Below, one piece after another: positions 511 to 31,390 of a DNA stretch of 64,000 bases (its first letter is position 1; each line of letters opens with the position of its first letter). The notes beneath the pieces were generated by a model. That model did not search any database. It was not told the origin of the DNA and worked only from the letters and a program-made list of their open reading frames with translations. The stretch covers positions 24,615 to 88,614 of the forward strand of contig NZIP01000019.1 of the NCBI GenBank assembly GCA_002691645.1, given 5' to 3'. Source of the DNA: Flavobacteriaceae bacterium. Its GTDB lineage: Bacteria; Bacteroidota; Bacteroidia; Flavobacteriales; Flavobacteriaceae. The position numbers and the translations under genes are program-made.

Positions 511-511
511 G

Positions 512-2107: not shown

Positions 2108-2119
2108 GGGTTTAGTTAT

Positions 2120-2782
2120 TTAATTTACTAAAGGTTTTATGACTTTAGACCATATTTCATAGCCTTTGGCATTCATATGAAGTCCATCATTAATAAAAAT
2201 AGTTTTGTTTATTTCACCATCGACAAGCATAGGAGTGTCTACATCGGCAAAGCTCAAATACGCTTTCGACCGGGCCATTTTTTCAATTTTTCCATTGAGC
2301 TTCAAAAACTTAGAACGCAGATTCCACCTTGCAATACTTGGTTTGGCTGCAATAAATACAATCGTCGTGTTCTTGTTGTGCTTTCGAATTAGTCTAAATA
2401 CCTTTTTGAGGTGTCGCTTGGATTTTGCCACAGAACGCCCTATCGCTAAATCATTATCCCCTTCGTAAACAAATACTTGCTTTGGATTGTATTGTAGAAC
2501 TAGAGGCTCTATATAATGAATTAAATCAAGGGCTGTCGACCCTCCAAATCCAGTATTTAAGATAGTTTCAGAAGTATTTAGTTCACTTACATTGCGCCAA
2601 AACCGAATGCTTGATGATCCTGTAAAAACAATAGGCGCTTTTTCAGCAATTGCTGTGTTTTGGTACTTGTTAACGATGGCATCGACTTCTTTTTGAAAGC
2701 GAGTAGGCTTCCAATTGTTTTGAGCGATTAGTGTCAGGCTACTGCTTAGCAGTACTAGCAATAAGTAACGATTTTTTTTCAT
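2120..2782 (-). CDS. SGNH/GDSL-family hydrolase (esterase)
   Basis: SGNH blocks are present: FTGSSSI (I), GFGGST (II), EGDNDL (III), DGLHMN (V). I prefer the ATG at 2782 (MKKNRYLLLVLL signal), which lies 1 nt after the upstream M14 stop, over the longer ORF-track start at 2812. Confidence 0.7.
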   Translation of the reverse strand: MKKNRYLLLVLLSSSLTLIAQNNWKPTRFQKEVDAIVNKYQNTAIAEKAPIVFTGSSSIRFWRNVSELNTSETILNTGFGGSTALDLIHYIEPLVLQYNPKQVFVYEGDNDLAIGRSVAKSKRHLKKVFRLIRKHNKNTTIVFIAAKPSIARWNLRSKFLKLNGKIEKMARSKAYLSFADVDTPMLVDGEINKTIFINDGLHMNAKGYEIWSKVIKPLVN

Positions 2783-2783
2783 C

Positions 2784-5225
2784 TTAGTTTTGAAATAAGG
2801 CATTTGCTGCAATTAGTTTTCCATGGTACCAAAAACCTCTAAAAAGAGGATTGTCTACCAAATAAATCACTTGACCTCTTCCTAAACCTTCAGAACCAAA
2901 GAGTAGGGTTTTGGCCGTATTTTTTTGAACTTTTTCTCCTGCAAACCCAGAAATAGCTCTGTGGTTTTTTCCAATGGCTATGGCATTGTTTGAAGAGAGC
3001 AGTTCATAGTTATCCGCATTGAGTTTGAGTGAAAAATAATGAGCATCTAAACCGTATCCTAGAGGATGGGTTTGATCCACTTCAGCCTTAAAAATGGCTC
3101 CAGTTATCTGATATTTCATCATTTCTCGCTCTCTCATGTCGTTTGGTAAACGCTTGTCAATATCGTATTCCATTTTCTTTTTTTCTAGGGAAAGGCCCAG
3201 TTTTTTGGCAAAGGCTAGTGAAGAACCTTGAAGAATTAGTTTTCCTCCAGCTTGAGTCCAAGTTTTGATTTGTTCATTTTGTCGATCAGACAAGCTCGAA
3301 ATTCTTCCGCTTGGTATGATTAAAATGTCATAACTCTCCAAAGAAATACGACTGAGGTAATTTGTATCTATAGCCGTAAATGGCATATTGAGGTCTTGTT
3401 CAAAAAAGTACCACCATTCTCCGAAACTATAGCTCGAAACCCCATCTCCTCTTAATACAGCGATTTGAGGTTGCTTTCTTTGTTGAAAATATGATGATCC
3501 AAAATCTTTACCTCGATCGGTATATCCGGTATTGGTAGAGGTTATTTCAACATGGTAATTATCTTGTAATGCGTTCATTAGACCATTTAAATTGTCAATT
3601 TCTGTGTTATCTCTTTGCAAGACCACCATGGTGCCAGGATCGTAATTGGTATTGTCAAACCCAAAATATCTATTGGCATTACGGAGTTTAACACCTTTTT
3701 GCATTAGAGCAGCTGTTGCTTTTGCACTCTCAAATGAATTCCATTTGATAATGTAGGCATAACTCTTTTGAAGTGCTGTCTTTGATTCTTTTGCAGTGGG
3801 TGCAGTAGATGTTGCAATTCGTTGTTCTGTTTCTATGGCATTGAGACCATAGGCATAAGGCAATGACCATGCTGTGATGTCATAGGTCAATGAATCGGAC
3901 AAATATGCCTTAGGTTCAAGGAGCACCCTTGCTAGTTTCCCTTTGGTTTGTTTGGTAGACACCACCATTGCTTCAGCATCGACGTTTATCATTTTTTCTG
4001 AACCGCTGAGGTAATCAAACCCCTTTACCTTTTGATTGGAGGCTTTTTGAGTTTCTATACCGTGTTTTTCAAGTAGTGTTTGGAGTGCCGCAAGTCTAGC
4101 ACTGTTGCCGTGTATGATATAAGAGGTATTAGCGGTTTCACTGTCTTTGTAATAGCTGTTGAATTGAGTGATGAGTTGCTCTGCATTTCGAGCAGCCACC
4201 TCTACTGTAGAAATCCCGGTTGTAAAGTGATGTGCGATTCGATCCTTGAGCGTTAATAATTCGCCTTCCGCATTGTAAATACCTAGACCGGCTCTGCCGC
4301 TTCCCCCTTGTTCGTAGGTCATTCCAATAGCACCATTATAGGTTGGATAAGTGTCTCCATAACTTGGATATAACAAATCAAATCTCTCGTCCGTAAAAAA
4401 GAGCCATCCATTTTCATCAAAATACTTGGCGTGATTTCGACCTAATTGGTCTTGAAAACTTCGCTGAAAGTCAGTAATTATTTCGTGGTAAGGTTCAACA
4501 GCTGGTGCAAAATAGTACGGACTGTTTACCCCTTGTTCATGAAAATCAACATGAATATGTGGCATCCATTGCTGATAGGCCACAAGGCGTCGTTGTGACT
4601 CCTTTTGCGTTATCCATGCCCAATCTCTGTTTAAATCAAATATATAGTGATTGGTTCTTCCGCTTTGCCAACCCTCATAATGCTCGGCACTATTGCCATC
4701 GGCTTGCAGTAATTTGTGTTTTTTCTGCTTGTATAAATTTACATAGCGATCTCGGCCATCAGGATTGATACAAGGGTCGATAATAACTACGGTATTTTCT
4801 AAAAAATCACTCCTCTGCGTTAGAAGATGATGTGTCGTTTTCATTGAGGCCTCTGTGCTGACACTCTCGTTACCATGAACGTTGTAGCTCAGCCAAACTA
4901 CAGCCGTATTTCCTGTTTCTTCACTTTGAAGACCTTTTAAGTGATTTTCTTGAATGGCTTCTAGGTTTGCCATGTTTTCAGCTGAACTTAGAATTACCAA
5001 TCTTAATTTACGTCCTTCGTTTGTGGTACCGTACTCTACTATTTTAACGCGGTCATTTTCGTTCTCTGCCAAGTAGTTGTAATAATCTACTACTTGATGA
5101 TGTCTACTGAATTGACTTCCGAGTTCATACCCTAAAAATTCATCGGGGCTCATTATTTGTTGGGCAAAAATGATATTGACCAAAAGCACTAAAATCAGTG
5201 TGCTTGAAAATTTCTTATTCTTCAT
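2784..5225 (-). CDS. M14-family zinc carboxypeptidase-like protein, long form (paralog A)
   Basis: 813 aa with a signal peptide. Zn ligands are present: YNVHGNES (HxxE) and HVDFHEQG. The long C-terminal extension ends NPLFRGFWYHG. It is a clear paralog of 32980-35508. Confidence 0.75.
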   Translation of the reverse strand: MKNKKFSSTLILVLLVNIIFAQQIMSPDEFLGYELGSQFSRHHQVVDYYNYLAENENDRVKIVEYGTTNEGRKLRLVILSSAENMANLEAIQENHLKGLQSEETGNTAVVWLSYNVHGNESVSTEASMKTTHHLLTQRSDFLENTVVIIDPCINPDGRDRYVNLYKQKKHKLLQADGNSAEHYEGWQSGRTNHYIFDLNRDWAWITQKESQRRLVAYQQWMPHIHVDFHEQGVNSPYYFAPAVEPYHEIITDFQRSFQDQLGRNHAKYFDENGWLFFTDERFDLLYPSYGDTYPTYNGAIGMTYEQGGSGRAGLGIYNAEGELLTLKDRIAHHFTTGISTVEVAARNAEQLITQFNSYYKDSETANTSYIIHGNSARLAALQTLLEKHGIETQKASNQKVKGFDYLSGSEKMINVDAEAMVVSTKQTKGKLARVLLEPKAYLSDSLTYDITAWSLPYAYGLNAIETEQRIATSTAPTAKESKTALQKSYAYIIKWNSFESAKATAALMQKGVKLRNANRYFGFDNTNYDPGTMVVLQRDNTEIDNLNGLMNALQDNYHVEITSTNTGYTDRGKDFGSSYFQQRKQPQIAVLRGDGVSSYSFGEWWYFFEQDLNMPFTAIDTNYLSRISLESYDILIIPSGRISSLSDRQNEQIKTWTQAGGKLILQGSSLAFAKKLGLSLEKKKMEYDIDKRLPNDMREREMMKYQITGAIFKAEVDQTHPLGYGLDAHYFSLKLNADNYELLSSNNAIAIGKNHRAISGFAGEKVQKNTAKTLLFGSEGLGRGQVIYLVDNPLFRGFWYHGKLIAANALFQN

Positions 5226-5293
5226 TGAAGTTTACATCTTTAGATTACTACGAAAGATATGGCTTATCTTTGAATTCTCTAAGTTTTTTAGCT

Positions 5294-6898
5294 ATGGCCA
5301 GGTATGCTTTTGGTGCAGATGAAAGTTTTAAAATCAATCCTTTGCTCAAGGATTATTTGACTGGTCAATTACCCCAACGGTGGTATAATCGTTTTGCAGA
5401 TCTTGAAAACATCAAAGCGCAAATAGATGAAAAGTCGAGCAGTTATAATCACAATTTTAGAGCATTATTATACAATGAAATAAAGAAAAGCTATGACACT
5501 TTAGCTATTGATTTACAAGAAAGTGTAGTGCTACAAAATCTGGAGTTATTAAAAGAGAAAAACACCTTCACTATAACGACAGGGCATCAGCTTAATCTTT
5601 TTACTGGACCTGTTTTTTTTGTGTATAAAATTCTTCACACTATTGTGTTGTGTGAAAAATTTAAGTCTGAGTATCCTGACTTCAATTTTATACCTGTTTA
5701 TTGGATGGCTTCAGAAGATCATGATTTTGAAGAAATCAATCACTTTCAGTTTAGGGGTAAAAAATTTCAATGGAATAGTGCACAAAAAGGAGCAGTAGGA
5801 CAATTTGATCTGCACGGACTTAATGAGGTGTTCAAAGTATTCAAATCACACTTAGGACGTTCGAAAAACGATACTGAACTCAAATCACTTTTTGAGTCAG
5901 CTTATCTAAAGTTTGATAATCTTGCACAGGCTACTCATCTTCTTGTGCACGAACTCTTTGGGCGCCACGGATTGATTGTTCTAGATGCGGATAGAAGAGC
6001 ACTGAAAGAATTAATGATTCCGCTTTTTAAAGAAGAACTCATTTCAAATCCTTCGCAGACTCTTGTTAAAGATCGTAGTGAAAAAATAGGCGAAAAAGGT
6101 TACAAAGCACAGGTGTTTCCAAGACCGATCAACCTTTTTCATTTGAGTGAACAAGAACGTCAGAGAATTGATATCGATTGTGACTTGTATCAATTGGTAA
6201 ATTCTAAGGTTAATTTTTCTCAAGAGGAAATTTTGAGTGAAGTAGAAGCTCATCCAGAGCGCTTTTCACCAAATGTAATTTTAAGGCCCTTGTATCAAGA
6301 ATACATCTTACCTAATTTAATGTATGTTGGTGGAGCAGGTGAATTGAGTTATTGGTTTCAACTAAAGTCTGTTTTTGAACATTTTCAAGTAGTTTTTCCA
6401 ATGTTGAAATTGAGACATTCTGTCTATGCTGCCGATGAAAAAACATATCGAAAATTGCAAAAATTAAATGTTGTTGATGGTGATTTAAATAATGCCAAAA
6501 ATCAGTTGATCAATAGGTGGGTTCGAAAAGTTTCTAATATTCCATTGGAATTAACCGATTTTAAAGCTTTGTTGGATGAGCAGTTTAATTTATTACAAGA
6601 GCGTTCAAAAAATACAGATCTAAGTTTTGAAGGAGCTGTAAAAGCACAACGTCAAAAACAGATGAACGGTCTTGATAAGCTTGAGAAAAGATTACTGCTT
6701 GCGCAAAAAAGGGTTTTAAAAGACGAGATTCAGCGCATATCAATCTTGTATGAGTTATTTTATCCCTTGGGTAAACCTCAAGAACGCGTTGAAAATTTTA
6801 GCACTTTCTACAGTGATTACGGTTCTCGATTTATCGAAATCGTTTATACCGAATTTCAAAAACAAACAGACTCTTCAGTACTTTTTATCGAACTTTAA
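5294..6898 (+). CDS. bshC: bacillithiol biosynthesis cysteine-adding enzyme BshC
   Basis: BshC/YllA-like hallmarks are present: TGHQLNLFTGP, WMASEDHD, YVGGAGELSYWFQLK. I prefer the ATG at 5294, because the ORF-track start at 5198 would overlap the divergent M14 gene. Confidence 0.7.
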   Translation: MARYAFGADESFKINPLLKDYLTGQLPQRWYNRFADLENIKAQIDEKSSSYNHNFRALLYNEIKKSYDTLAIDLQESVVLQNLELLKEKNTFTITTGHQLNLFTGPVFFVYKILHTIVLCEKFKSEYPDFNFIPVYWMASEDHDFEEINHFQFRGKKFQWNSAQKGAVGQFDLHGLNEVFKVFKSHLGRSKNDTELKSLFESAYLKFDNLAQATHLLVHELFGRHGLIVLDADRRALKELMIPLFKEELISNPSQTLVKDRSEKIGEKGYKAQVFPRPINLFHLSEQERQRIDIDCDLYQLVNSKVNFSQEEILSEVEAHPERFSPNVILRPLYQEYILPNLMYVGGAGELSYWFQLKSVFEHFQVVFPMLKLRHSVYAADEKTYRKLQKLNVVDGDLNNAKNQLINRWVRKVSNIPLELTDFKALLDEQFNLLQERSKNTDLSFEGAVKAQRQKQMNGLDKLEKRLLLAQKRVLKDEIQRISILYELFYPLGKPQERVENFSTFYSDYGSRFIEIVYTEFQKQTDSSVLFIEL

Positions 6899-7097
6899 GG
6901 CGCCATGTGTACTTTAGAATCTTGTGGTTATAGCTTCTCTTCTAGGTCTATTTTTAAAAACAGCATTTATTTGATTTGATGTGGCTATTCGTTTTTCTAA
7001 TATAAGCTTAGGGACTGCTTACAGATGATGCTTAACTATTTTTAGAATTATTCAATTTTTTGAAATAAACTCCTATACAAAGTTGCTATTTTTGTGC

Positions 7098-8630
7098 ATG
7101 CATCAAAAAGTTCTCATTTTAGATTTCGGTTCACAGTACACTCAGCTGATAGCAAGAAGAATCAGAGAGTTAAATATTTATTCTGAAATTACACCGTACA
7201 ACAAGGCTCCTAAATCTTTAGACGCATACAAAGCAGTTATTTTATCAGGTTCTCCGCACTCTGTGCGTGGCGAAAATCCTCCAAAAATTGAATTGTTAAA
7301 TTATCGTCAAAAATTACCTCTATTGGGTATTTGCTACGGAGCCCAATATTTGGCTAGCCAAGCAGGTGGTGAAGTGAAACCTTCAAAAATTAGAGAATAC
7401 GGAAGAGCCAATCTTACTCAAATTGAAATTGATTCTTCATTAATGAATGGGGTAGAACTTAATTCTCAAGTTTGGATGAGTCATTCAGACACCATTAGTG
7501 CATTGCCAGCAACTTGTAAAAAGATAGCTAGTACTGCTGATGTAGAGAATGCAGCCTTTGTGTTTGAAAATGAAGAAACTTTTGGAATTCAATTTCATCC
7601 AGAGGTGTATCACAGTAAGGACGGAATTAAAGTGTTGGAAAATTTTTTAGTTCGAATCGCACATTTTGATCAAGATTGGACGCCAAATGTTTTTGTTGAA
7701 GAGACTGTTGAAGATCTTAAGGCACAAATTAAAGATGATAGTGTAATTTTAGGATTGTCAGGAGGTGTAGACTCTACTGTGGCTGCTGTGCTTTTGCATA
7801 AGGCGATAGGTGATAGATTGCACTGTATATTCGTAAACAATGGACTCTTGCGTAAGAATGAATTTGAACAAGTCCTTGAGCAATACAAAGGTTTTGGCTT
7901 GAATGTTAAAGGTGTGGATGCAGGAGAACGTTTTTTATCTGAATTAAAGGGAATAAGCGAACCTGAACAAAAAAGAAAAACAATCGGCAGGGTTTTTGTT
8001 GATGTTTTTGATAGCGAGTCGAAACTGATTTCAGATGCCAAATGGCTGGCACAAGGAACTATTTATCCTGATGTCATTGAATCGGTATCAGCAACTGGGG
8101 GACCCTCGGCAACCATAAAAAGTCATCACAATGTGGGAGGATTACCTGATTATATGAAACTTAAAGTCGTAGAACCCTTACGGAAATTGTTTAAAGATGA
8201 AGTGAGACGTATAGGAGCCACACTGGGTATAGCACCTTCAATATTAGGAAGGCATCCTTTTCCAGGGCCTGGTTTAGGTATACGTATTTTAGGAGATATC
8301 ACTCCAGATAAAGTCAGAATGTTACAAGAAGTAGATGCCATTTTCATCGATGGATTGAAAAAGTGGGAACTCTATGATAAAGTGTGGCAAGCAGGTGCCA
8401 TGCTCTTACCTGTTCAAAGTGTGGGAGTAATGGGTGATGAACGTACTTATGAAAATTGCGTTGCTTTGAGAGCAGTGGAAAGCACTGATGGTATGACTGC
8501 TGATTGGGTTAATTTTCCGCATGAATTCTTGCAGAGTATTTCCAATGAGATTATCAACAAAGTGAAGGGTGTAAATCGTGTGGTTTATGATATCAGTTCA
8601 AAACCTCCAGCAACAATAGAGTGGGAATGA
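7098..8630 (+). CDS. guaA: GMP synthase (glutamine-hydrolysing)
   Basis: GATase motif GICYGAQ, PP-loop SGGVDSTV, and the conserved C-terminus [11 protein letters not shown] at 7098 ([17 protein letters not shown]). Confidence 0.95.
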
Positions 8631-20503: not shown

Positions 20504-20538
20504 TAAATATCGTTATTTTGTGTTGGATTTTCCAATTT

Positions 20539-22248
20539 ATGCAAAGCATTAGACTTTTTGGCTATTCACTTTCAGGATTTCATGTTTTTTTAAGCCTATG
20601 GACTCTCGCAGCCCTTCTACAGTCTTATTTTATGGATCTCTCAGGAGAAGAAGCGTATTATGTACTTTTTGCGCGAAGTATTGATTTGGGATATTTGGAT
20701 CATCCCCCAATGGTGGCCTTTGCCACTTATCTCGGAGAACTTTTATTTCAAAATGAGCTCGGAGCACGCTTGTTGTTTATACTTATGAGCAGTTGTTCGT
20801 TATATTTAATGTACGATTTGGTCGATCGCAAGAATTTGAAATTGTTTGTGTTTTTGTCAATGGGGCTGCTCGCTGTTCACGCAGGTAGTTTTTTAATCAA
20901 GACTGATGTACCCTTACTCTTTGGAGAGCTTTTGTTTTTCTATTGTTATAAACACTTTCTTGACAAGCCCTCTTTAAAATATTGTGTGGGATTAGCATTT
21001 GCTATTTCATTTATGTTTCTCAGCAAGTATCACGGGGTGCTCATTGTTTTCTTTACGCTTTTATCGAATCCGAGATTATTCACACAAAAGCCTTTTTACA
21101 AGGTGCTTTTTTTGACTGTACTCTTGATGCTTCCCTATGCCTTTTGGCAATACCAAAATGATTGGATGAGTTTAAAATTTCATTTAAGTGATCGCTCAGA
21201 CATTAGTTTTAAATGGAGCAATGTCTTGGGTTACCTCTTTAGTCAACCTTTAGTCTTAGGTCCTTTGGTGAGTATTCCTATGTTTATCGCGGTGGGAAAA
21301 AGAAAAGGCTTGGATTTATATGAAAAGTCTTTGAAATATGTGTTGATTGGTGTCTTGGTCTTTTTCTTTTTACAGTCGTTTAGAGTTTTTATTCACAAAC
21401 ACTGGACTTCAATAGCCTTGGTTCCTTTGTTTTTATTGTCTTATCCCTATTTAGCTGAAAAAGAGAAGTTGCAAAAAACAACCATTTTACTTGGAAAGAT
21501 TACGCTGATTGCCCTTATTCCGGTTCGTCTTTATTTCGCTTTTGATATTCTACCCAAGCAGTTTGTTTATTCTAGTGGCCCCCTTCACCACTGGGAGCGC
21601 TGGTCTGAGCAACTGGACTCACTCTCTTCGGGTCGTCCGATTGTTTTTGTCAACTCCTATGAAAATGCGTCGCGTTATCAGTATTACGCAGCAAAAAAGG
21701 CACACACACTGAGTACATTTTACTTTAACAATACTCAATTTGACTATTGGGACTATGAAGAACACATTCAAGGAAAAGAAGTTTTCCTCATAAATCACAA
21801 GCGCAACAACCCTAACTTTTCAGCACCTTTTGATGCAGACAATAGATCACAAATTCGTTATGCCGTGGTAGCAGACTATCGTTCTTACGCTCAAGTCGAT
21901 ATCGAAATTAATGAGTATACTGAAAATGAGGCTTATGTATTTGGTGTAGGGGAGATCAAAATGGTAGAAGCCACTATCAGCAATAGAGGAAGTTACCCTT
22001 TAAAACTTAATAGTTCAGGTAATATGCCTGTAGTGCTTTCTCAATATTTTCTCAGAGGAGAGCAGCAGCTAGGTTCTAAGGTCGTATTAGATTCTTTGTT
22101 TTTGGAATCAGGTGCTTCTAAAAGAATTAAACTCGAATTGTCGGCCCCAGAGACTTCTGGAAATTATCAGATGCGATTGGGGATTTCCTACGGCTGGATA
22201 CCTGCAACCATAAATAGTAGTCGAATAAAATTAAAGGTCAAAGAATGA
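20539..22248 (+). CDS. GT-C fold polyprenyl-phosphate-sugar-dependent glycosyltransferase (ArnT/PMT-like, GT39/83) with C-terminal Ig-like domain
   Basis: GEEAYYVLFARSIDLGYLDHPPMVAF loop motif, more than 10 TM helices, then a soluble beta-rich tail of about 150 aa. I prefer the ATG at 20539 to the TTG at 20518. Confidence 0.7.
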   Translation: MQSIRLFGYSLSGFHVFLSLWTLAALLQSYFMDLSGEEAYYVLFARSIDLGYLDHPPMVAFATYLGELLFQNELGARLLFILMSSCSLYLMYDLVDRKNLKLFVFLSMGLLAVHAGSFLIKTDVPLLFGELLFFYCYKHFLDKPSLKYCVGLAFAISFMFLSKYHGVLIVFFTLLSNPRLFTQKPFYKVLFLTVLLMLPYAFWQYQNDWMSLKFHLSDRSDISFKWSNVLGYLFSQPLVLGPLVSIPMFIAVGKRKGLDLYEKSLKYVLIGVLVFFFLQSFRVFIHKHWTSIALVPLFLLSYPYLAEKEKLQKTTILLGKITLIALIPVRLYFAFDILPKQFVYSSGPLHHWERWSEQLDSLSSGRPIVFVNSYENASRYQYYAAKKAHTLSTFYFNNTQFDYWDYEEHIQGKEVFLINHKRNNPNFSAPFDADNRSQIRYAVVADYRSYAQVDIEINEYTENEAYVFGVGEIKMVEATISNRGSYPLKLNSSGNMPVVLSQYFLRGEQQLGSKVVLDSLFLESGASKRIKLELSAPETSGNYQMRLGISYGWIPATINSSRIKLKVKE

Positions 22249-23018
22249 ATAAAAGAGCTCAAGAATTAGCCGCTTTTAGCCGCTTGTTAGACATCATGGA
22301 TGATTTGAGATTAAAGTGCCCCTGGGACAAAAAGCAAACCCTTGGGTCTTTAAGACATTTGACCATTGAAGAGACCTATGAATTATCGGATGCCATATTG
22401 ACCATGGATTTGCCCGAAATAGAAAAAGAACTTGGAGATGTTCTACTTCACATTGTATTTTATGCTAAGATAGGCTCAGAGACTGGTGATTTTGACATCA
22501 CATCTGTATGTGAGGCGATTAGTAACAAGCTCATTGAGAGACATCCACATATTTACGGTGATTTAGAATTGAACAGTGAGGAAGAGGTCAAGCACAACTG
22601 GGAAAAATTAAAATTAAAAGAGGGAAAGAAATCTGTTTTAGAAGGGGTGCCAAAATCACTTCCTTCTTTGATTAAAGCCTATCGAATTCAAGACAAGGTT
22701 TCTGGTGTTGGTTTTGATTGGGAAAAAAACGAACAGGTCTTGGATAAGCTCAAAGAAGAACTTCAAGAGTTAAGAGAAGAAATTACATCCAATAATCAAG
22801 ATGCTATGGAGGCTGAGTTTGGAGATGTTTTATTTTCGATGATCAACTACGCTCGTTTTCTTGGTATTAATCCTGATCAGGCTCTTGAACGCACCAATAA
22901 AAAATTTATTCAACGTTTTCAATATCTAGAAGAACAGGCTAACTCACTTGGAAAATCTTTAAAAGACATGAGCTTAGATGAGATGAATGTTTATTGGGAA
23001 CAAGCAAAAAAGTACTGA
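22245..23018 (+). CDS. mazG: nucleoside triphosphate pyrophosphohydrolase MazG
   Basis: Tandem MazG EExxE motifs (IEETYELSDAI, EAEFGDVLFSMINYAR), 257 aa. Its start overlaps the upstream stop (ATGA). Confidence 0.85.
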   Translation: MNKRAQELAAFSRLLDIMDDLRLKCPWDKKQTLGSLRHLTIEETYELSDAILTMDLPEIEKELGDVLLHIVFYAKIGSETGDFDITSVCEAISNKLIERHPHIYGDLELNSEEEVKHNWEKLKLKEGKKSVLEGVPKSLPSLIKAYRIQDKVSGVGFDWEKNEQVLDKLKEELQELREEITSNNQDAMEAEFGDVLFSMINYARFLGINPDQALERTNKKFIQRFQYLEEQANSLGKSLKDMSLDEMNVYWEQAKKY

Positions 23019-24388
23019 TGTATTCCTTAGCGTTTTATAAAAAAGAATTTGCAACCAATTGGAAACTAGCCTTTCCAGTAATCCTTGGGATGTTGGGCCA
23101 CACCTTTGTGGCTTTTGCCGATAACATTATGGTTGGACAACTCGGTGCTGCAGAGCTGGCGGCGGTATCCTTAGGGAACAGTTTCTTTTTTGTGGCCTTT
23201 GCTGTAGGTATTGGAATATCAGCGGCAATTACACCGCTCATCGCTGAGGCGGATGGTTCGGGAAAAAAACTAAATGTTAAAAAGGTCTTCAAACACGGCT
23301 CAGTGATTTGTTTGAGCTCTGGGATTATTTTATTCGGTGTTTTATTGATTTTGGGTCCTTTAATGGAAAGCATGAAACAACCTCCAGAGGTTGTTGCGCT
23401 TGCGGTACCGTATTACCAAATCATTTCACTGTCTCTGATTCCTATAATGGTCTTTCAGGCATTTAGAACCTTGTGTGACGGATTGTCAAGAACCAAAATA
23501 CCGATGTATGCTACGCTGATCTCAAATGCTTTAAATATTCTTTTTAACTATTTGCTGATTTTTGGAAATTGGGGTTTTCCAGCCTTAGGCGTTATAGGCG
23601 CCGGATATGGAACCCTTATTTCTAGAGTGCTCATGGTACTCTTTATCGTTATTGTACTTTATAGGTCTGCCTATTTCAGAGAGTTTATTACCCGATTAAA
23701 CTGGAAGAAGACCAGTTGGGGTTATGTGAAGAAGATTTTAAATCTTGGCTTACCCACATCAGCTCAGGTATTTTTCGAGGTAACGTTATTTACTATGGCC
23801 ATATGGCTAAGTGGAATACTCGGTACCATCGAACAGGCAGCGAATCAAATTGCTTTAAACTTATCATCAATGACCTATATGGTCGGCCAAGGATTAAGTG
23901 TAGCCGCTATGATTAGAGTGGGTAACCAAAAGGGTAAAAAAGATATTGTTCGCTTGAAAGAGGTTGCCTTTTCATTATTTGGAATGACGCTACTTATTGA
24001 AATTGTGTTTGCCTTAGCCTTTCTGATTTTTAGATTTGATTTACCTCTTGTTTATTTAGATACGGAGAGTTCATTGAACCAGGTTGAAAACCTCAAGGTC
24101 ATTTCACTTGCGTCTATGTTGCTGTTATGGTCTGCATTTTTTCAAATTTCTGACGGATTACAAATAGTGATATTAGGAGCGCTCAGAGGAATTCAAGACG
24201 TCAATGTGCCCGCCCTTATCACATTTATTGCCTATTGGGTTATCGCATTTCCGGTTTGCTATATCCTTGCAATTGAATTAGAATGGGGTGGAAATGGTAT
24301 TTGGATTGGTTTACTAGTAGGCTTAACCGCTTCAGCACTTTTGCTCTATTTAAGATTTGTATTTTTGCTTCGTAAACAGCAATTCTAA
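23018..24388 (+). CDS. MATE-family (MOP superfamily) transporter
   Basis: 12-TM protein with NorM-like segments. The ATG at 23018 shares 1 nt with the mazG stop (TGATG). Confidence 0.8.
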   Translation: MYSLAFYKKEFATNWKLAFPVILGMLGHTFVAFADNIMVGQLGAAELAAVSLGNSFFFVAFAVGIGISAAITPLIAEADGSGKKLNVKKVFKHGSVICLSSGIILFGVLLILGPLMESMKQPPEVVALAVPYYQIISLSLIPIMVFQAFRTLCDGLSRTKIPMYATLISNALNILFNYLLIFGNWGFPALGVIGAGYGTLISRVLMVLFIVIVLYRSAYFREFITRLNWKKTSWGYVKKILNLGLPTSAQVFFEVTLFTMAIWLSGILGTIEQAANQIALNLSSMTYMVGQGLSVAAMIRVGNQKGKKDIVRLKEVAFSLFGMTLLIEIVFALAFLIFRFDLPLVYLDTESSLNQVENLKVISLASMLLLWSAFFQISDGLQIVILGALRGIQDVNVPALITFIAYWVIAFPVCYILAIELEWGGNGIWIGLLVGLTASALLLYLRFVFLLRKQQF

Positions 24389-24389
24389 A

Positions 24390-24617
24390 ATGGAGCTTCC
24401 AAAATTTATATTAGGTGATAATTCTGCAATTAAAGATGCGGTATACGTCATTCACACTGAATTTCCTCGATTTATTTTAAACGTCGCTAACGATGATCTC
24501 ATGTGGTTTGAACAATTTTCAAATGAAGATGAAAAAGAAATTGAAGAAATTACAGAAAACTTAGTTCAAGAGGCTTTGACTTTTTACGATGCTGAAGTAG
24601 CAGAATATGATTCTTGA
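24390..24617 (+). CDS. small acidic hypothetical protein (75 aa)
   Basis: The ATG at 24390 is 1 nt after the MATE stop, and its last 11 nt overlap the PAP2 start. It is Glu/Asp-rich with no TM segment, and I do not recognise the family. Confidence 0.45.
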   Translation: MELPKFILGDNSAIKDAVYVIHTEFPRFILNVANDDLMWFEQFSNEDEKEIEEITENLVQEALTFYDAEVAEYDS

Positions 24618-25179
24618 TACTATTCAGCATATTGACGAAACTATACTTTTAAGCGTTCAACAGTGGGGACATTCTAGTCTAGATTTGTTTTGGCAATTCG
24701 TAACTAATAAATGGAATAGCATTCCCTTATACTTGATTATTGTTTTTCTGCTTTTTAAAAAACAATCCTCTAAAGAAGCCTTCTTTTATTTGATTTGTAT
24801 CGCGCTTGTAATTGTAGTTTCAGATCAAATGGCGAATTTGTTTAAAAACGGTTTTGAACGACTAAGACCCTGTCACTTGGAGACTCTAAATGATAGGCTA
24901 AGAGATATTGGCTATCGATGTGGCGGACGTTATGGTTTTTATTCAGCTCATGCCTCTAATGCATTTGCCTTAGTAGTTTTCGTGACCTCGGTCATAAAGT
25001 TCAACCGAAAATATAGCGTGATACTATTGTATATTTGGTCTGCTTTATTGAGCTTTAGTCGAGTATATTTAGGGGCGCATTATCCTTCTGATGTTTTAGT
25101 AGGAGCGCTATTTGGTAGTATTATCGCCTTAATAATTTATAGATTAAGTATTCTTGGATCAAAATATATTCTTGACTAA
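24607..25179 (+). CDS. PAP2-family lipid phosphatase (LpxE/LpxF/undecaprenyl-diphosphatase-like)
   Basis: All three acid-phosphatase motifs are present: KNGFERLRP, YSAHAS, SRVYLGAHYPSDV. It is a multi-TM protein. Confidence 0.8.
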   Translation: MILDTIQHIDETILLSVQQWGHSSLDLFWQFVTNKWNSIPLYLIIVFLLFKKQSSKEAFFYLICIALVIVVSDQMANLFKNGFERLRPCHLETLNDRLRDIGYRCGGRYGFYSAHASNAFALVVFVTSVIKFNRKYSVILLYIWSALLSFSRVYLGAHYPSDVLVGALFGSIIALIIYRLSILGSKYILD

Positions 25180-26842
25180 ATTTCAATTTACTCCGCAGCG
25201 TTTATTGTGGGTTGGCCTGTTTATGGTTTACCTGCTAGGCTTGTTTTCTCCTCTGATCGAAAATGATTCTGCTCAATTTGCTGTGATGGCCATGCGAATG
25301 GCTCAAGAGAACGATTACCTTCATTTGATTAAAGGTTTTGAGCCTTATTTAGATAAACCTCATATGCATTTTTGGTTGAGTGCGCTATCATTTGAACTCT
25401 TCGGATTTCATCACTGGGCTTACAGGCTTCCGAGTTTACTTATGCTGATAGTGGCCACGGTTTCAATTTATCGTTGGTCTAATCTATTTTACAACACCCG
25501 AGTTTCACAATGGGTTGCTTTTCTATTCGCCAGCGCTCAAACCATTATTCTCTCAGGAATAGATGTTCGAACTGATGCTATTCTTGTGGGTTTTGTGAGT
25601 TTGGCTTTATACCAATTTTCTTCATTCATTGAGACCGAAAAAAAGAGTGCGTTAATTCTGGGTAGTGTGGCAGCAGCTTTTGCTTTTTCGACCAAAGGAC
25701 AAATCGCTCTTTTAGTTATTGGAATAGCAATTTTGGTACATCTCGGACTTCGAAAAAAATGGAAATTGTTAGTGTCACATCAATTTTTGTTGGCCTTGTT
25801 CGTCTTTTCACTTTGTATATCTCCAATGCTCTATGCCTATTTCATTCAATTCGACCAGCATCCTGAATTGATTATCCGTGGGCAAGGAGAGCGTACTGGC
25901 CTTAAATTTATTTTTTGGGAGCAAAGTATGGAGCGATTAAGTGGGGAGGGTTTAGGAAAAAACTCCAGCAGTTATTTCTTTTTTGTGCATTCTTTTTTAT
26001 GGGAATTTTTGCCTTGGACAGTGTTGTTTATAGGTGGTCTTATTTTGACAATTAAGCGCAACCAGCAAAGATTCCAAGCAATGGAGCTGTTTCCTTATTT
26101 GGTCTTGCTCATCGTTTTTCCTTTGATTTCAATGGCTCAATTTAAATTACCTCATTATTTAAATGTTTTGATGCCTTTATTCGCTTTGGCTACTGCAAAG
26201 TTTATTACCTATTGTTTTCATCTTGAAAAGACGCCTAAGTATGTGAAACTCTTTCAGCTTTTGATTTTACTTCTGTATTTTACCCTTGGGATGTTGTTGT
26301 TTTTTGGGATTTTCGAAGAAAGAGGAAATAGCGTTCTTTTTGTTTTGCTTTTGGCCATCTCCATATGGAGTTTAAGAGCTGTCATTCATCTTAAGTTTCA
26401 CAGTTTTGAGCGTTTATTAATGTTCAATGCCATAGGACTTATTTTTATAAATCTCATTTTGAATACCTATTTCTATCCTAGGCTCGCTGAATTTCAAGCG
26501 GGTTATATGACGGCAAAAGAATTAAATGCCTCACCTTATTCGCAGTCTCCTGTATATAAATTAACAGCTAAGCACAGTTGGGCCTTGGATTTTTATCATC
26601 AGCGGCCTTTAAAGCTTTTAAAAGTGGCGGATCTTGATTCGTTCGAAGGCTTGTTATACGTAGGTCAAGAAGAATTTGATTCGATTAAGGCAAGTAGAAA
26701 AACCTATGATTTAATTTCCAAAAAAACACAATTTAGTGTCAGTCGTTTGAATGTGAAGTTCCTAAATCCAAAAACTAGGGAGCAGGTGACCTTTTATCGT
26801 TATTTACTTCAGTTGAATCCTTCTGAAACTCAATCGAATTAA
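25154..26842 (+). CDS. GT-C fold ArnT-like glycosyltransferase (second copy)
   Basis: NDSAQFAVMAMRMAQENDYL...YLDKPHMHFW resembles the ArnT periplasmic loop motif, and the protein has many TM segments. It needs a non-ATG start (TTG at 25154 or 25172), because the first ATG would delete TM1. Confidence 0.7.
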   Translation: MDQNIFLTKFQFTPQRLLWVGLFMVYLLGLFSPLIENDSAQFAVMAMRMAQENDYLHLIKGFEPYLDKPHMHFWLSALSFELFGFHHWAYRLPSLLMLIVATVSIYRWSNLFYNTRVSQWVAFLFASAQTIILSGIDVRTDAILVGFVSLALYQFSSFIETEKKSALILGSVAAAFAFSTKGQIALLVIGIAILVHLGLRKKWKLLVSHQFLLALFVFSLCISPMLYAYFIQFDQHPELIIRGQGERTGLKFIFWEQSMERLSGEGLGKNSSSYFFFVHSFLWEFLPWTVLFIGGLILTIKRNQQRFQAMELFPYLVLLIVFPLISMAQFKLPHYLNVLMPLFALATAKFITYCFHLEKTPKYVKLFQLLILLLYFTLGMLLFFGIFEERGNSVLFVLLLAISIWSLRAVIHLKFHSFERLLMFNAIGLIFINLILNTYFYPRLAEFQAGYMTAKELNASPYSQSPVYKLTAKHSWALDFYHQRPLKLLKVADLDSFEGLLYVGQEEFDSIKASRKTYDLISKKTQFSVSRLNVKFLNPKTREQVTFYRYLLQLNPSETQSN

Positions 26843-27704
26843 AGTAAAAGTAAATACCAATTAGTGATACTAGTGCGTTTAGTATAAAAAATAACATACT
26901 TGTACCTAAAGACTTTTCTTCAGATAAATTGAACCATTGAGCCCCATATACAAATGTTAGTTCACGACTTCCTATGCCCCCAATAGTTAAAGGTATTACA
27001 GATACAATGCTCGAGCACAAAAAGACCAATACATAAGGATGTATATCTGTGCTTATGTTTAATCCATTTAATATGAAGAGAATTGAAATTACTTGAAGTC
27101 CTTGAACAAACAAGGAGTATACAATAGTGCTCCAAAAAATGGTTTTTGTATAGGCAAATCCTTTGATAATAACAATCCTATAGCACAGTAGCCCGACGGC
27201 CAAAAGCAAAATACTCCAACCGCTGTTGATGTTATAAATAGAAATTTGTAGACTAGCTAAGACAAAGACACCAATGGTGAAAAGAGCGAATAATCCACTA
27301 ATGCGATCTAATACAAGAACGGCAATTGTTCTTTTACTTGAACTTTGTGGGTTTTGTTTTTTTAGGATGTAGGCTTTATAGGCATCTCCTCCAATTCCGC
27401 CAGGTAAAAATAGGTTGTAAAACATACCTAAAAAGTAAAGTTGAAGATTAGTTTGCGCTTCGATTGGGATTTGAATGACCCTGAAATAACTGAGTAATCT
27501 ATAACTGGCAATAATCTTAGAGAGAAGTACGAGCAGAAAACCTAAAATTAGATTAGTTGGGGAAATAGATTTTAATACACTAAATGTACTTTGGGTATCA
27601 ATTTTTGAAAATACAAATAGAATGAGGCCGATACTGACCACTAGTTTAACTAGGGTCAATAAGAGTTTTTTATACCTCTTTTGAACTTGCTTGTTTTTCG
27701 ACAT
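26775..27704 (-). CDS. UPF0104 / lysyl-PG-synthase-TM-type flippase-like membrane protein
   Basis: 8-TM protein with the family hallmark LPGGIGGDAYKAYIL. Its start overlaps the upstream GT2 gene by 35 nt. Confidence 0.7.
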   Translation of the reverse strand: MSKNKQVQKRYKKLLLTLVKLVVSIGLILFVFSKIDTQSTFSVLKSISPTNLILGFLLVLLSKIIASYRLLSYFRVIQIPIEAQTNLQLYFLGMFYNLFLPGGIGGDAYKAYILKKQNPQSSSKRTIAVLVLDRISGLFALFTIGVFVLASLQISIYNINSGWSILLLAVGLLCYRIVIIKGFAYTKTIFWSTIVYSLFVQGLQVISILFILNGLNISTDIHPYVLVFLCSSIVSVIPLTIGGIGSRELTFVYGAQWFNLSEEKSLGTSMLFFILNALVSLIGIYFYFNSIEFQKDSTEVNNDKRSPAP

Positions 27705-28641
27705 GTACTTTCTTTATGCGATAGGGTCTTTTTTGTTGTGATTCGTAATAGGTGCGAATCAACATTTCCATGACAAGACCTATGGTAAAGACTTGAACTC
27801 CTGCTAAAATGAGCATTAACCCAAAGATGAGTAGTGGTCTTTGACCGATATCTTCTCCAAATCCAAATTTAACAACTAAGAGATAGGCATTGATTAAAAT
27901 TCCTAGACTGATCATTACGAAACCGAATAAACCAAACAGGTGTATAGGGCGTTGAAGGTATTTTCTAATAAATAAGAGTAGTAGCATGTCAGCAATAACT
28001 TTAAACACACGTTCTAGTCCGTATTTGGATTGGCCTGCATGTCTCGCGTGATGTTTTACAGGAACTTGCTTGATTTGTGCTCCCTCAAGAAATGCTAATA
28101 GCGTAATGAAGCGATGCATTTCTCCGTATAAGTTGAGATTTTTAGCGATGTCTTTTGAAAAAACTTTAAGGGCACAGCCATTATCTTTTATATCTAAACT
28201 GGTTATTTTTCGAACTAAGAAATTCGCAATCTTGGATGGAATTTTTTTGAGCCAACTGTCTTTTCTTTTTTGTCTTATTCCAGTGACTAAATCAAAATCT
28301 TCTTCAATTGCCACCTTAAGCATACTTGGAATATCTGAAGGATCGTTTTGTAGATCACCATCCATGGTAATAATGTAGTCTCCATTTGCATAATCAATTC
28401 CTGCAGCTAGCGCCAAACTCTGACCGTAATTTTTTTTCAATTCAATAAGGTGAACCAAAGGATCTTTTAAAGCTTTAATGGCTTTTAAGGTTTGATCTGT
28501 AGAAAAGTCATTAACAAAAATGATTTCATACTTATAACCTTTAAGACTCTCATGAATTTTTTGAGTAAGTAGGGCGACATTGTCCTGTTCATTATAAACT
28601 GGAATTACAACAGATAGTAGTTTGTTTGTGATGGTTGCCAT
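27670..28641 (-). CDS. GT2 polyprenyl-phosphate glycosyltransferase (ArnC/GtrB/DPM1-like)
   Basis: LSVVIPVYNE, MDGDLQNDP (DxD), and two C-terminal TM helices, which is the typical ArnC/GtrB layout. Confidence 0.8.
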   Translation of the reverse strand: MATITNKLLSVVIPVYNEQDNVALLTQKIHESLKGYKYEIIFVNDFSTDQTLKAIKALKDPLVHLIELKKNYGQSLALAAGIDYANGDYIITMDGDLQNDPSDIPSMLKVAIEEDFDLVTGIRQKRKDSWLKKIPSKIANFLVRKITSLDIKDNGCALKVFSKDIAKNLNLYGEMHRFITLLAFLEGAQIKQVPVKHHARHAGQSKYGLERVFKVIADMLLLLFIRKYLQRPIHLFGLFGFVMISLGILINAYLLVVKFGFGEDIGQRPLLIFGLMLILAGVQVFTIGLVMEMLIRTYYESQQKRPYRIKKVHVEKQASSKEV

Positions 28642-28656
28642 ACTTAGGTATAACGA

Positions 28657-29319
28657 TTAATGGTCTTGGTTATTTTCTTTGAGTAATTCTGGAAATAAGC
28701 GTTGGAATCTTTTTAACCTAGGAACAGAGACATTTAAAATGTAACGGTTGTTGGGGTTTTTTAGTTCAAAATCTTGATGATATTCTTCAGCTTCATAAAA
28801 AATCTCAAAAGGAATAACTTCAGTTACTATTGGTTTAGAATATACTCCCGAAGCTTCTAACGCTTTGATGTATTCATTAATTAGTGATTTTTCAACTTCA
28901 TTTTGATAAAAGGCAATAGATCTATATTGGCTTCCATAATCAGGGCCTTGATAGTTTAAGGCTGTAGGATCGTGAGAACCATAATAGACGTCTAGGAGTT
29001 GGAGAAAACTTATTTCTTTGGGATTATAAATCACCTTAACGGCTTCGGCATGTGAGGTACGTCCTGCAGCAACTTGATTATATGTAGGATTTTTCTCTCT
29101 ACCACCTGAATAACCTGAAATAACTTTATCAACACCTTTTACAGATTCAAATACAGCCTCTACACACCAAAAACATCCACTTGCAAAATAGGCCGTACTC
29201 AACTCTGAATTTTGAATTTCAGTTGGGTTTTGAATGCTTTGATCATTGGATTTTTGAACCTCGTAACAGCTAGAGAGCATTGCTATTACTACGATGAGAT
29301 TTATTTTGAAAATATTCAT
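28657..29319 (-). CDS. msrA: peptide-methionine (S)-S-oxide reductase MsrA, lipoprotein form
   Basis: Catalytic GCFWCVE, YHQDF, and signal MNIFKINLIVVIAMLSSC. I prefer the ATG at 29319 to the TTG at 29337. Confidence 0.85.
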   Translation of the reverse strand: MNIFKINLIVVIAMLSSCYEVQKSNDQSIQNPTEIQNSELSTAYFASGCFWCVEAVFESVKGVDKVISGYSGGREKNPTYNQVAAGRTSHAEAVKVIYNPKEISFLQLLDVYYGSHDPTALNYQGPDYGSQYRSIAFYQNEVEKSLINEYIKALEASGVYSKPIVTEVIPFEIFYEAEEYHQDFELKNPNNRYILNVSVPRLKRFQRLFPELLKENNQDH

Positions 29320-29561
29320 TAGCTTAATTTTATACAAACATACAACATCTAATTGGTAGGTAATAATAGAGTAAAAATGCAGTTTTTTCTGATTGAAAAT
29401 TGTATGAATAAACTGACAATATTTTAAGTATTCGTCAATACTTTAATCTCAAATATGTATTTCATCGATTGAATCGCACTTTTTATTGATAAATATTTAA
29501 AATAATTGAAATGTATGTAGGAGACTTCTTCTATCATTGTAGGAAATAAAACTATTTAATC

Positions 29562-31331
29562 ATGAAAAAATTATTTTTTGGAGCGATGGCTCTTTTTGTC
29601 TCAGTGTCAATGGCCCAAGACAATGATTCAGATGTAACTATTACAGATAGTAATAGAAATACGGTTGATGTAACTCAAACAGGAGATACAAACAAATCGG
29701 ATGTAAAGGTTCTGAATTCCTCTAATGCTAACAAAGTTACTGTAGGACAGACGAACTTAAGAAACAATTCTAATGTTAAGGTCACTAAGAATTCTAGTCG
29801 TAACAAGGTTAAAACAACTCAGTTAGGCGAACGCAATAAAAGTAACGTTACGGTACAGCGAAATTCTAGCGGAAATAAAGCTAGAACAAAACAAGTTGGG
29901 GAAAGAAATGACTCAAGAGTTGTGGTTAGCCGTGATGCAGACCGAAATACTGTTCGTACGGTTCAAAGAGGTATGAGTAACGAATCAAAAATCAATATCA
30001 AAGATGACTCTAACGGCAACACAGTCTCAGTTCTTCAAAGAGGTGACAACAACACTTTTGATATGTGGGATAGTGATGGTATTCAAAGAGACTCATCACA
30101 TAACGCCGTGACAGCTGTTCAAAACGGTGATGGTAACGAAGCGGAGGTTGAAATTGAAGACGATTCAGATCGCAATACAGTTATGGTTTCACAAGTAGGT
30201 AATGACAATGATATTGATGATATTGAATTAGATAATAACTCTAACAGAAATACTGTTTCTGTTTCACAAATGGGAGACGAAAATTTCGCTAGTGTAGACA
30301 TTGATGATTCAAATGCTAATACGGTAACTGTAACACAAACAGAAGACGACAAAATTTCTAGAGTATTTGCTACAGGGGATTCAGACAGAAATACAGTAGT
30401 TGTAAACCAAAGTGGAGATACACAAAGATCAAGAGTTGCCTTAAGAATGGGGTCGGATGGTAACAATGTAAAAGTCACGCAAAAATCAGCGGATAATTTC
30501 TCATGGGTTGCTGGTTTTGGAGCAGATGGTAACAAGGTGCGCGTTCGACAAAGAGGAGATGAAAACATCTCAGTTGTGTTATTAGCACCTGGCGCTAACG
30601 GAAACACAGTGAGAGTAAAACAACCTAGAGATAACAATGCTGCCCTATCGTGGAATGGAATGGGTTCTAGCCATAACACCGTATTTATCAGACAAGCTGG
30701 AGAATTCGGTTTAGCGATTTCTGCTAATATCATGGGTGGTTCAGGCAACGATGCTTCTATAAGACAAGGTCGAGGTACTGAAGGAAACCTAGCTGTTGCT
30801 GTTGCTTCAGGTAATAATAATACGGCTACAATATCTCAAAGCAAATTGGTTGCGGGTATTTTGAATGCTGCGGGTATTATTCAAACAGGAAATAGAAATA
30901 CTGCGAGTGTTGACCAAACAGGATCATTAAACCTTGGTATTGTTTTTCAAGGCGGAAATAGAAATTCAGCAACATTAACTCAAATAGGTCCTTTTAACTT
31001 AAATGCTGCAGTACAAACAGGTAACGGCAATACTGCAACAGCATATCAAATGGGAAGTGGAAACTTTGCTTATGTGAATCAAGCAGGAAATGGTAACACT
31101 TCTTCAGCTATGCAAATGGGGCCAGATAATGACTCTGGAACTGTGATGCTTGGAAATCGTGATATGTCAATAGTTATGCAAACTGGTGAGGACAACTTTA
31201 GTAGAGTTCGTTTTGAGGATAGTGCTAGAAATACAGTTACTGTATCTCAAATGGGTATGAGCAATACTTCAAATGTTTCTATAATGAGTGGTAATGCTAA
31301 CACAGTAGGTGTTCACCAATCAGGGATGTAA
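29562..31331 (+). CDS. secreted curlin-like repeat protein (about 23.5 tandem 22-28-aa repeats)
   Basis: Sec signal MKKLFFGAMALFVSVSMAQ, then repeats of the form [SN]xxN[TK]VxVxQxGxxNxSxVxV. The C-terminal units (NGNTATAYQMGSGNFAYVNQAG) look like canonical CsgA QxGxxNxAxxxQ repeats. Confidence 0.75.
   Translation: MKKLFFGAMALFVSVSMAQDNDSDVTITDSNRNTVDVTQTGDTNKSDVKVLNSSNANKVTVGQTNLRNNSNVKVTKNSSRNKVKTTQLGERNKSNVTVQRNSSGNKARTKQVGERNDSRVVVSRDADRNTVRTVQRGMSNESKINIKDDSNGNTVSVLQRGDNNTFDMWDSDGIQRDSSHNAVTAVQNGDGNEAEVEIEDDSDRNTVMVSQVGNDNDIDDIELDNNSNRNTVSVSQMGDENFASVDIDDSNANTVTVTQTEDDKISRVFATGDSDRNTVVVNQSGDTQRSRVALRMGSDGNNVKVTQKSADNFSWVAGFGADGNKVRVRQRGDENISVVLLAPGANGNTVRVKQPRDNNAALSWNGMGSSHNTVFIRQAGEFGLAISANIMGGSGNDASIRQGRGTEGNLAVAVASGNNNTATISQSKLVAGILNAAGIIQTGNRNTASVDQTGSLNLGIVFQGGNRNSATLTQIGPFNLNAAVQTGNGNTATAYQMGSGNFAYVNQAGNGNTSSAMQMGPDNDSGTVMLGNRDMSIVMQTGEDNFSRVRFEDSARNTVTVSQMGMSNTSNVSIMSGNANTVGVHQSGM
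29649..31328 (+). repeat. protein-level tandem repeat array (period about 66-84 nt, diverged at DNA level)
   Basis: I parsed it by hand into 23 full units plus one 12-aa half unit that account for residues 30-589 exactly. The nucleotide copies are imperfect. Confidence 0.8.
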
Positions 31332-31346
31332 ATACCTTTATATATT

Positions 31347-31377
31347 GAAAAAAAAACCAGCCGAAAGGCTGGTTTTT
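31347..31377. terminator. bidirectional intrinsic terminator
   Basis: A9 (31347-55), CCAGCC (31356-61), GAAA loop, GGCTGG (31366-71), T6 (31372-77). It lies between the convergent stops at 31331 and 31391. Confidence 0.85.
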
Positions 31378-31390
31378 TCATTTAAGGTGT

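Follow-up and report, generated by a model that had tools for sequence, protein, structure and literature searches.

The 64,000-nucleotide window analysed here, the whole stretch taken from contig NZIP01000019.1 of a Flavobacteriaceae bacterium (GCA_002691645.1), carries a plus-strand open reading frame (ORF) at 29562..31331 that starts with ATG and encodes a protein of 589 aa. We identify this product as a curlin repeat protein of the CsgA/CsgB type, belonging to the 'degenerate' class; its membership of the curlin family is near certain. The gene is real, well conserved and probably functional. An identical protein is encoded on a 98.8-kb metagenome contig of the European Nucleotide Archive (ENA) and on a Tara scaffold, and the source is an uncultured planktonic marine member of the Flavobacteriaceae. 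For its role we lean towards a model in which the protein would be exported by Sec, secreted by a CsgG-type system from a distant locus and assembled head to tail into a fibre, and we regard this full model as reasonably probable.

The initial annotation had called the protein curlin-like, and the profile search that it proposed bore this out. The Pfam model Curlin_rpt (PF07012, gathering cut-off 20.7 bits) matched the whole protein with 143.1 bits (E 2.2e-42) in 11 stretches. Five non-overlapping segments, named by the units defined below, were each individually above the cut-off, with 28.8 bits for residues 19-148 (b0 and R1-R5), 52.6 for R6-R10, 35.4 for R11-R16, 68.6 for R17-R21 and 27.6 for R22-R24. 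Since every segment exceeds the cut-off, the whole mature chain is curlin repeat, beyond the C-terminal units that had been quoted as resembling classical repeats (residues 444-465 and 488-509, both found as described). Among solved structures, PDB 8c50 ('curlin associated repeat-containing protein') matched residues 297-588 with E 1.6e-26, best over R17-R21, and the NCBIfam models CsgB (NF007506) and CsgA (NF007470) aligned to residues 415-523. Judged by these profile matches, the protein belongs to the wider curlin repeat family and is not an orthologue of enterobacterial CsgA/CsgB.

Units were delimited by cutting at the motif N-x-V-x-V-x-Q, which recurs every 22-28 residues. The gene is thereby divided into the following parts.

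29562 to 29615, plus strand: Sec (signal peptidase I type) leader, residues 1-18, MKKLFFGAMALFVSVSMA, ending before QD; read from sequence.
29616 to 29645, plus strand: N-terminal half unit b0 (QDNDSDVTIT), a motif-b strand with motif NDSDVTI and core N, S, V, I.
29646 to 30005, plus strand: units R1-R5, residues 29-148, including the basic block.
30006 to 30377, plus strand: units R6-R10, residues 149-272, the acidic block; R6 has a 4-aa insertion in arc 2.
30378 to 30806, plus strand: units R11-R16, residues 273-415, near-neutral and degenerate, with motif b lacking the terminal Q.
30807 to 31148, plus strand: units R17-R21, residues 416-529, classical curlin units of 22-23 aa; motif b ends in Q in R17-R20.
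31149 to 31328, plus strand: units R22-R23 and the C-terminal motif-a half unit R24, residues 530-589.

The mature chain is thus made up of residues 19-28, 23 units (R1-R23, residues 29-575) and a half unit of 14 aa (576-589), in agreement with the initial description of about 23.5 tandem units of 22-28 aa behind a Sec signal; the half unit had been given as 12 aa, a difference of boundary choice only. The unit consensus, dSNrNTVtVxQxxGdxNxSxxV, likewise agrees with the one proposed before. An autocorrelation based on BLOSUM scores reached its maximum at a lag of 24, with further peaks at 48 and 72, and the mean pairwise identity of the units in fixed register was 30%, compared with 8.0 ± 0.4% for shuffled sequences (z about 60). 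The periodicity of the units is far beyond chance. The DNA copies of the units, compared in register, are 44% identical on average and 62% at most, and Tandem Repeats Finder detected no array in the gene. The composition is of low complexity and rich in N, S, G and T (N+Q+S+T+G = 48%), and the mature part contains 17 methionines, several of them within Q-M-G arcs.

The leader, read by eye, looks like a putative Sec/signal peptidase I signal: MKKLFFGAMALFVSVSMA combines a basic n-region (MKK), a hydrophobic core and a small-x-small SMA before QD. It contains no cysteine and therefore no lipobox, and it is kept in the four orthologues described below.

A unit consists of motif a, an arc of the form x-G-x-x, motif b and a second arc. 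In motif a, N and Q are present in 23 of the 24 copies and the arc glycine in most units. In motif b, N is kept in 20 of the 24 strands (b0-b23), and the terminal Q is found only in R17-R20; it is because of this missing Q elsewhere that the 'degenerate' class fits. The segment after the leader, previously taken for a 9-aa linker, is a motif-b strand: its NDSDVTI corresponds to NKSDVKV in R1, and both structure models described below place a strand there. The chain therefore runs b0, (a1-b1) to (a23-b23) and a24, and read in a permuted b-to-a frame it forms 24 complete layers. The core of b23 is NSVI, identical to that of b0 and found in no other of the 24 motif-b strands, and the core of a24, NVVQ, equals that of a1. 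At the putative subunit junction all core residues are accordingly identical (4/4 and 4/4); within the molecule, the corresponding means are 2.1/4 and 3.3/4. This match of the first and last layers is kept in four orthologues and in a 45% identical homologue (locus L019), and the terminal repeats are regular, not degenerate.

Charge is distributed unevenly along the array. The net charges of R1 to R5 are -1, +4, +5, +4 and +1, those of R6 to R10 are -3, -7, -7, -3 and -2, and the units outside R2-R4 and R6-R10 stay between -2 and +2. The order of a basic stretch (R2-R4) followed by an acidic one (R6-R10) is kept in four orthologues and in the L019 homologue. A comparable basic run was found in none of 17 distant relatives, nearly all of which are acidic or neutral throughout, and on this comparison the charge blocks are lineage-specific features.

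The structure prediction proposed with the initial annotation gave the expected pattern of strands at moderate confidence. AlphaFold2 (AF2), run on the full length with an alignment of 18 sequences, returned an all-beta model of 48 strands (1 + 23x2 + 1) in strand-arc-strand order, with a mean predicted local distance difference test score (pLDDT) of 71 and a predicted template modelling score (pTM) of 0.59. The pLDDT was below 50 in the leader (residues 1-18), reached 80-90 at residues 420-589 and lay at roughly 60-78 in most of the remainder. A separate run on residues 19-296 gave 23 strands (1 + 11x2) at pLDDT 70. The b0 strand covers residues 21-27 in the full-length model and 20-27 (fragment 2-9) in the other, within a block of pLDDT about 76. 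The sole low-confidence loop is the 4-aa insertion of R6 (residues 173-178 in the full-length model and 171-178, fragment 153-160, in the other). Charge is absent from 97% of the residues predicted to point inward (V, N, Q, A, S, I) and present on 29% of those that point outward; this pattern fits the published N-$-Psi-$-Psi-$-Q rule (PMC10192328).

Conservation was assessed in related genomes. Three Flavobacteriaceae metagenome-assembled genomes (MAGs; MED603, Co_bin_772 and ME_XS_2108_bin27) carry orthologues with best-segment identities of 92, 89 and 83%, and all three have msrA and the amidohydrolase gene as neighbours, in synteny with the window. Four genomes have the 1.77-kb ORF intact, the only indel being one in-frame unit, and the ratio of non-synonymous to synonymous substitution rates (dN/dS) is 0.21-0.25, which indicates purifying selection on the gene. 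Repeat number, which it had been suggested to survey, is 22.5 or 23.5 in the four orthologues: the one at locus L007 (10001-11704) lacks exactly R18, 22 aa in register. The flanks of this locus are the closest to those of the window (nucleotide identity 98.2% for msrA and 97.0% for the amidohydrolase gene), yet its curlin gene is the most divergent, at 89%; in the other two MAGs the flanks are 93-95% and the curlin genes 91-93% identical. This suggests faster evolution of, or recombination at, the curlin gene. Divergence faster than that of the flanks is common among surface proteins.

Another state of the array was found in locus L019 (ENA ERZ26859011 ctg110599, 7.9 kb, 1.64x coverage), where positions 410-7870 hold two apparent tandem homologues, 45-53% identical to the window protein. 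Both have in common with it the leader, b0, the basic, acidic and classical blocks and the C-terminus, but their acidic block is hugely expanded. In the first, which has about 1266 aa and about 50 units, this block holds 72-nt repeats at the DNA level, matching one another at 84-94%. Frameshifts, probably from long-read sequencing errors, interrupt the ORFs and make the unit details provisional, and the contig ends before the second copy does. The lineage thus spans 22.5, 23.5 and about 50 units; the array of the window is old and that of L019 has recently expanded. The claim that the array is old and not a recent expansion is consistent with the diverged DNA copies of the window, but within the lineage units continue to be gained and lost (R18 in L007, about 50 units in L019).

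More distant relatives were sought in two ways. A scan of metagenome contigs added two loci, one from which about 0.9 kb of the gene was recovered and one at 36% identity, and neither extended the survey of repeat number. An exhaustive library search returned 1292 relatives at E <= 1e-3 and none at E <= 1e-30, with lengths of up to 1632 aa; by these measures the protein is isolated in sequence and typical in architecture. A word-indexed search with the N-terminal half returned only P0001 (L016 1250-1564, JGI 3300037841 Ga0311393_1321670), which lies on a hairpin-like contig. Both of its arms start with the window leader and the QDNDSEVTITDSN segment, at 86-96% nucleotide identity to 29544-29780, and continue into one unrelated body without a Pfam match. 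P0001 is a chimera produced by assembly or, if real, a protein that has the leader and first repeats in common with the curlin.

On these observations we propose the following model. After Sec export the protein would fold into a two-sheet beta-solenoid of about 24 layers, which at the layer spacing of 4.8 Å given by Sleutel et al. 2023 (PMC10192328) would measure 11.5 nm. Motif a (N-x-V-x-V-x-Q) and motif b (N-x-S/A-x-V-x-V/I/Q) would direct N, V, A, S and Q to the core and charges to the surface. Because the core of the last layer (b23 NSVI / a24 NVVQ) equals that of the first (b0 NSVI / a1 NVVQ), subunits could stack head to tail into a curli-like fibre; we infer such fibre or amyloid behaviour from the sequence. 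The outer membrane would be crossed through a CsgG/CsgE/CsgF channel encoded elsewhere in the genome, a need suggested by relatives of the same unit type that sit in csgEFG clusters. More speculatively, the basic (R2-R4) and acidic (R6-R10) blocks would band the fibre surface every 11.5 nm, and such banding could drive lateral, staggered packing of fibres or binding of anionic matrix polymers.

The relatives that point to a CsgG channel are as follows. P0058 (L017), 39-42% identical to the N-terminal part of the window protein and built of the same divergent unit type, is the first gene of a curlin-curlin-csgE-csgF-csgG cluster, and P0165 of Vibrio maritimus also lies beside csgEFG; the divergent unit type is therefore a CsgG-pathway substrate elsewhere. 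The rarity of RefSeq genomes that have CsgA without CsgG (about 2%; PMC10192328) points the same way. Of four distant long relatives with known context, P0010 and P0018 adjoin csgF-csgG, and P0012 and P0006 do not. As a separate observation, the CsgG homologue of the P0058 cluster (L017 12701-14062) is 453 aa long with an extra weak OMP_b-brl match, compared with 278-332 aa for the CsgG proteins of L003, L015 and L018.

Several results weigh against the model or the family assignment beneath it. Pfam scans covered 30 ORFs, namely all immediate neighbours and every ORF of CsgE, CsgF or CsgG size, and beyond the window the called genes of 10 kb on either side were inspected; no csgG, csgE or csgF was found in this region (about 84 kb, a local region that is part of one 98.8-kb contig). 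A scan of the same region with a hidden Markov model (HMM) of the repeat unit found no second curlin ORF or csgB-like partner; classical loci have two or three curlin ORFs. The NCBIfam scores lie below the equivalog cut-offs (CsgA 90 against 160 bits, CsgB 114 against 165), and with the N-terminal half a pairwise search against PDB sequences found neither 8c50 nor another curlin. AF2 confidence is only moderate, with pTM 0.57-0.59. Foldseek searches of the PDB with both models gave nothing significant (generic beta-helices, best E 0.03-0.1) and never retrieved 8c50. We treat them as uninformative, not as counting against the two-sheet left-handed beta-solenoid of curlins, and base the fold assignment on sequence homology and on the pattern of strands. 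Finally, the strong charge of the surface ladders could have a gatekeeper effect and impede polymerisation.

In a rival explanation the protein would have the curlin fold and neither polymerise nor use CsgG, being instead a monomeric 11.5-nm rod that stays in the periplasm or on the envelope after Sec export, for example a charged spacer or binding scaffold. Its isolation fits such a rod: the genes around it have housekeeping and envelope functions, neither a csg gene nor a CsgB-like partner was found over those 84 kb, and the protein has no C-terminal domain of the type IX secretion system (T9SS) and no lipobox. The heavy surface charge on about half of the units, which could oppose amyloid growth, and the further long curlin genes outside csg clusters (P0012, P0006) fit it as well. 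A capped monomer, however, would not need identical first and last layer cores, and these persist down to 45% identity; relatives of the same unit type sit in csgEFG operons. PMC10192328 moreover describes a highly acidic curlin, R15.5, that still forms fibres, and reports that genomes frequently hold several curlin genes outside the operon. We consider the rod unlikely, though it is the main rival.

A role as minor subunit of the CsgB type, in which the protein would nucleate the fibre or anchor it to the cell and not be its major subunit, is improbable. The higher NCBIfam score for CsgB (114 bits) than for CsgA (90 bits) points to it, but both are under their cut-offs. Nucleators are usually short and adjoin the gene of the major subunit; here no such gene adjoins and the terminal repeats are regular. 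CsgA and CsgB are in addition distinguishable only within Gammaproteobacteria, according to Dueholm et al. 2012 (PMC3521004). The notion of a decaying, non-functional repeat ORF or low-complexity artefact, prompted by the N/S/G/T-rich composition and by divergence faster than that of the flanks, is effectively refuted by an ORF intact in four genomes with dN/dS of 0.21-0.25 and a single in-frame unit as sole indel, and by conservation of leader, charge blocks and termini.

Other candidates were tried as well. No T9SS C-terminal sorting domain was found with Pfam and NCBIfam models up to E 10, and the repeats reach the last residue; with neither such a domain nor a cysteine, T9SS cargo and lipoprotein were rejected. 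An ice-binding or antifreeze solenoid was rejected, the flavobacterial ice-binding protein being only a non-significant Foldseek match (E 0.12) and a TxT-type surface ladder not being seen in the unit sequences. PADLOC defence models gave no match.

We compared the proposed fibre subunit with known curlins. A literature search on flavobacterial or marine curlins returned general surveys only. According to PMC10192328, the number of repeats in curlins ranges from 4 to 62, secondary maxima lying near 15 and 22, and their units measure 23 ± 5 aa; curlins fall into centrosymmetric, non-centrosymmetric and degenerate classes, may end in half-repeats, rarely carry N22-like targeting segments, use charged surface patches in fibre packing and occur in up to 30 copies per genome. 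PMC3521004 describes CsgA homologues that reach 529 aa and 22 repeats, curli systems in Bacteroidetes, and up to six csgA/B copies in a genome. The term 'giant' from the initial annotation is therefore apt relative to E. coli and does not hold within a family of 4-62 repeats whose members here reach 1632 aa. Long curlin proteins are already documented, and the window protein adds one with about 24 layers. A motif-b start with matched terminal cores and ordered charge blocks was not found in the available parts of these two papers, and we regard these features as variations within the known scheme.

Among the closest known cases is Sediminicola sp. YIK13 A0A0S1S4K2, which is from the same family, Flavobacteriaceae, and is assigned to the D (degenerate) class by Sleutel et al. 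2023. Like the window protein, it often lacks the flanking Q in motif b; both have insertions in arc 2 and hydrophobic residues replacing some of those in the N/Q columns, and for both the AF2 confidence is in the 70s. By description, it is a '10-stranded' solenoid, compared with about 24 layers here, and the window protein differs in combining a degenerate N-terminal two-thirds with the classical R17-R20 and ordered charge blocks. The best match of solved structure is CsgA R15.5 of Pontibacter korlensis (A0A0E3UX01, PDB 8c50). It is also a many-repeat Bacteroidota curlin with a motif-a half-repeat end, no N22-like segment and charged ladders, but unlike the window protein it is centrosymmetric, has Q in both motifs and 15.5 repeats, and is uniformly acidic. 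R15.5 starts and ends on the same sheet, which leads to a 2(1) screw axis; in the window protein the chain begins on motif b and finishes on motif a, an arrangement in which pure translation would continue the arcade.

E. coli CsgA/CsgB share with the window protein the repeat family, the Sec leader, the strand-arc-strand units and the logic of the N/Q ladders. They have 5 repeats in place of about 24 layers, and the window protein has no N22 targeting segment and is not in a csgBAC/csgDEFG locus. The short curlins of the P0058 type, found in Bacteroidota-like and Vibrio csg clusters (L017, L018), have the same unit type (DxSDxNTVxVxQ...NxSxVxIx), the motif-b strand start and the motif-a half-unit end. 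They are 219-300 aa long with about 8-11 units and stand directly beside csgE-csgF-csgG and a second curlin gene; P0058 is without the classical Q-Q block that the window protein has.

Two further elements flank the gene.

29338 to 29561, plus strand: upstream intergenic region of 224 bp, shared with the divergent msrA; the promoter is presumed here.
31348 to 31378, no strand assigned: bidirectional intrinsic terminator A9-CCAGCC-GAAA-GGCTGG-T6 between the convergent curlin and amidohydrolase genes; read from sequence.

Since both neighbours lie on the opposite strand, with a 224-bp spacer upstream and the terminator downstream, the curlin gene is monocistronic. The intergenic region is 85-90% conserved across three orthologous MAG loci, and the promoter would lie within it. 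Sigma-70-like matches there were weak and no more frequent than in shuffles, a full Bacteroidetes TAnnTTTG (-7) box was not found, and an Rfam scan of it returned no family. The terminator was not listed by a simple scanner, probably because its A and T runs pair and lengthen the stem. Inside the curlin gene lies an antisense ORF of 209 aa (30119-30748, minus strand); nothing that we found supports it as a gene, and the repetitive frame and composition probably account for it.

The neighbours upstream encode MsrA, a GT2 glycosyltransferase, an LPG_synthase_TM protein, a PMT_2 glycosyltransferase, PAP2 and MatE, and those downstream an amidohydrolase, an M14 peptidase, a histidine kinase and SecA. 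MsrA (28657-29337, minus strand; PMSR E 5e-59) has an N-terminal extension that ends in a lipobox-like LSSC and may be an envelope-anchored methionine sulfoxide reductase; a functional link to the methionine-bearing curlin is pure speculation. The stretch 20518-28641 holds envelope-modification genes, namely two PMT_2/ArnT-like genes (the first assigned from the called genes of L001), a PAP2 phosphatase, LPG_synthase_TM and GT2, with MazG and a MatE exporter interspersed. It resembles a locus for sugar modification of lipid or undecaprenyl phosphate.

What the gene means for its organism depends on the rest of the genome. About 2% of CsgA-containing RefSeq genomes have no CsgG (about 98% have one), according to PMC10192328. 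If this genome has CsgG elsewhere, the gene is an ordinary extra curlin gene; if not, it joins the 'orphan' cases (roughly 2%), the biology of which has no explanation so far. A bolder proposal, for which we see only a slim chance, is that streamlined marine Flavobacteriaceae without CsgG/E/F use an undescribed curlin route, or that charge programmes a staggered lateral assembly at 11.5 nm. If true, this would be a stand-alone 24-layer curlin exported or used by a route so far undescribed for curlins, or its electrostatic register would amount to a collagen-like D-stagger built from amyloid subunits, and expansion of the acidic block to about 50 units in the relative would tune the 11.5-nm period.

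To the curli-type functional amyloids known so far, the protein adds a well-conserved member of about 24 layers that comes from uncultured planktonic marine Flavobacteriaceae. Its b-to-a frame with identical end-layer cores, its ordered charge blocks and its position with no csg gene nearby may be of interest for the study and engineering of curli. It also displays the dynamics of repeat arrays within one family, with an old, diverged array here and a recent expansion in a relative.

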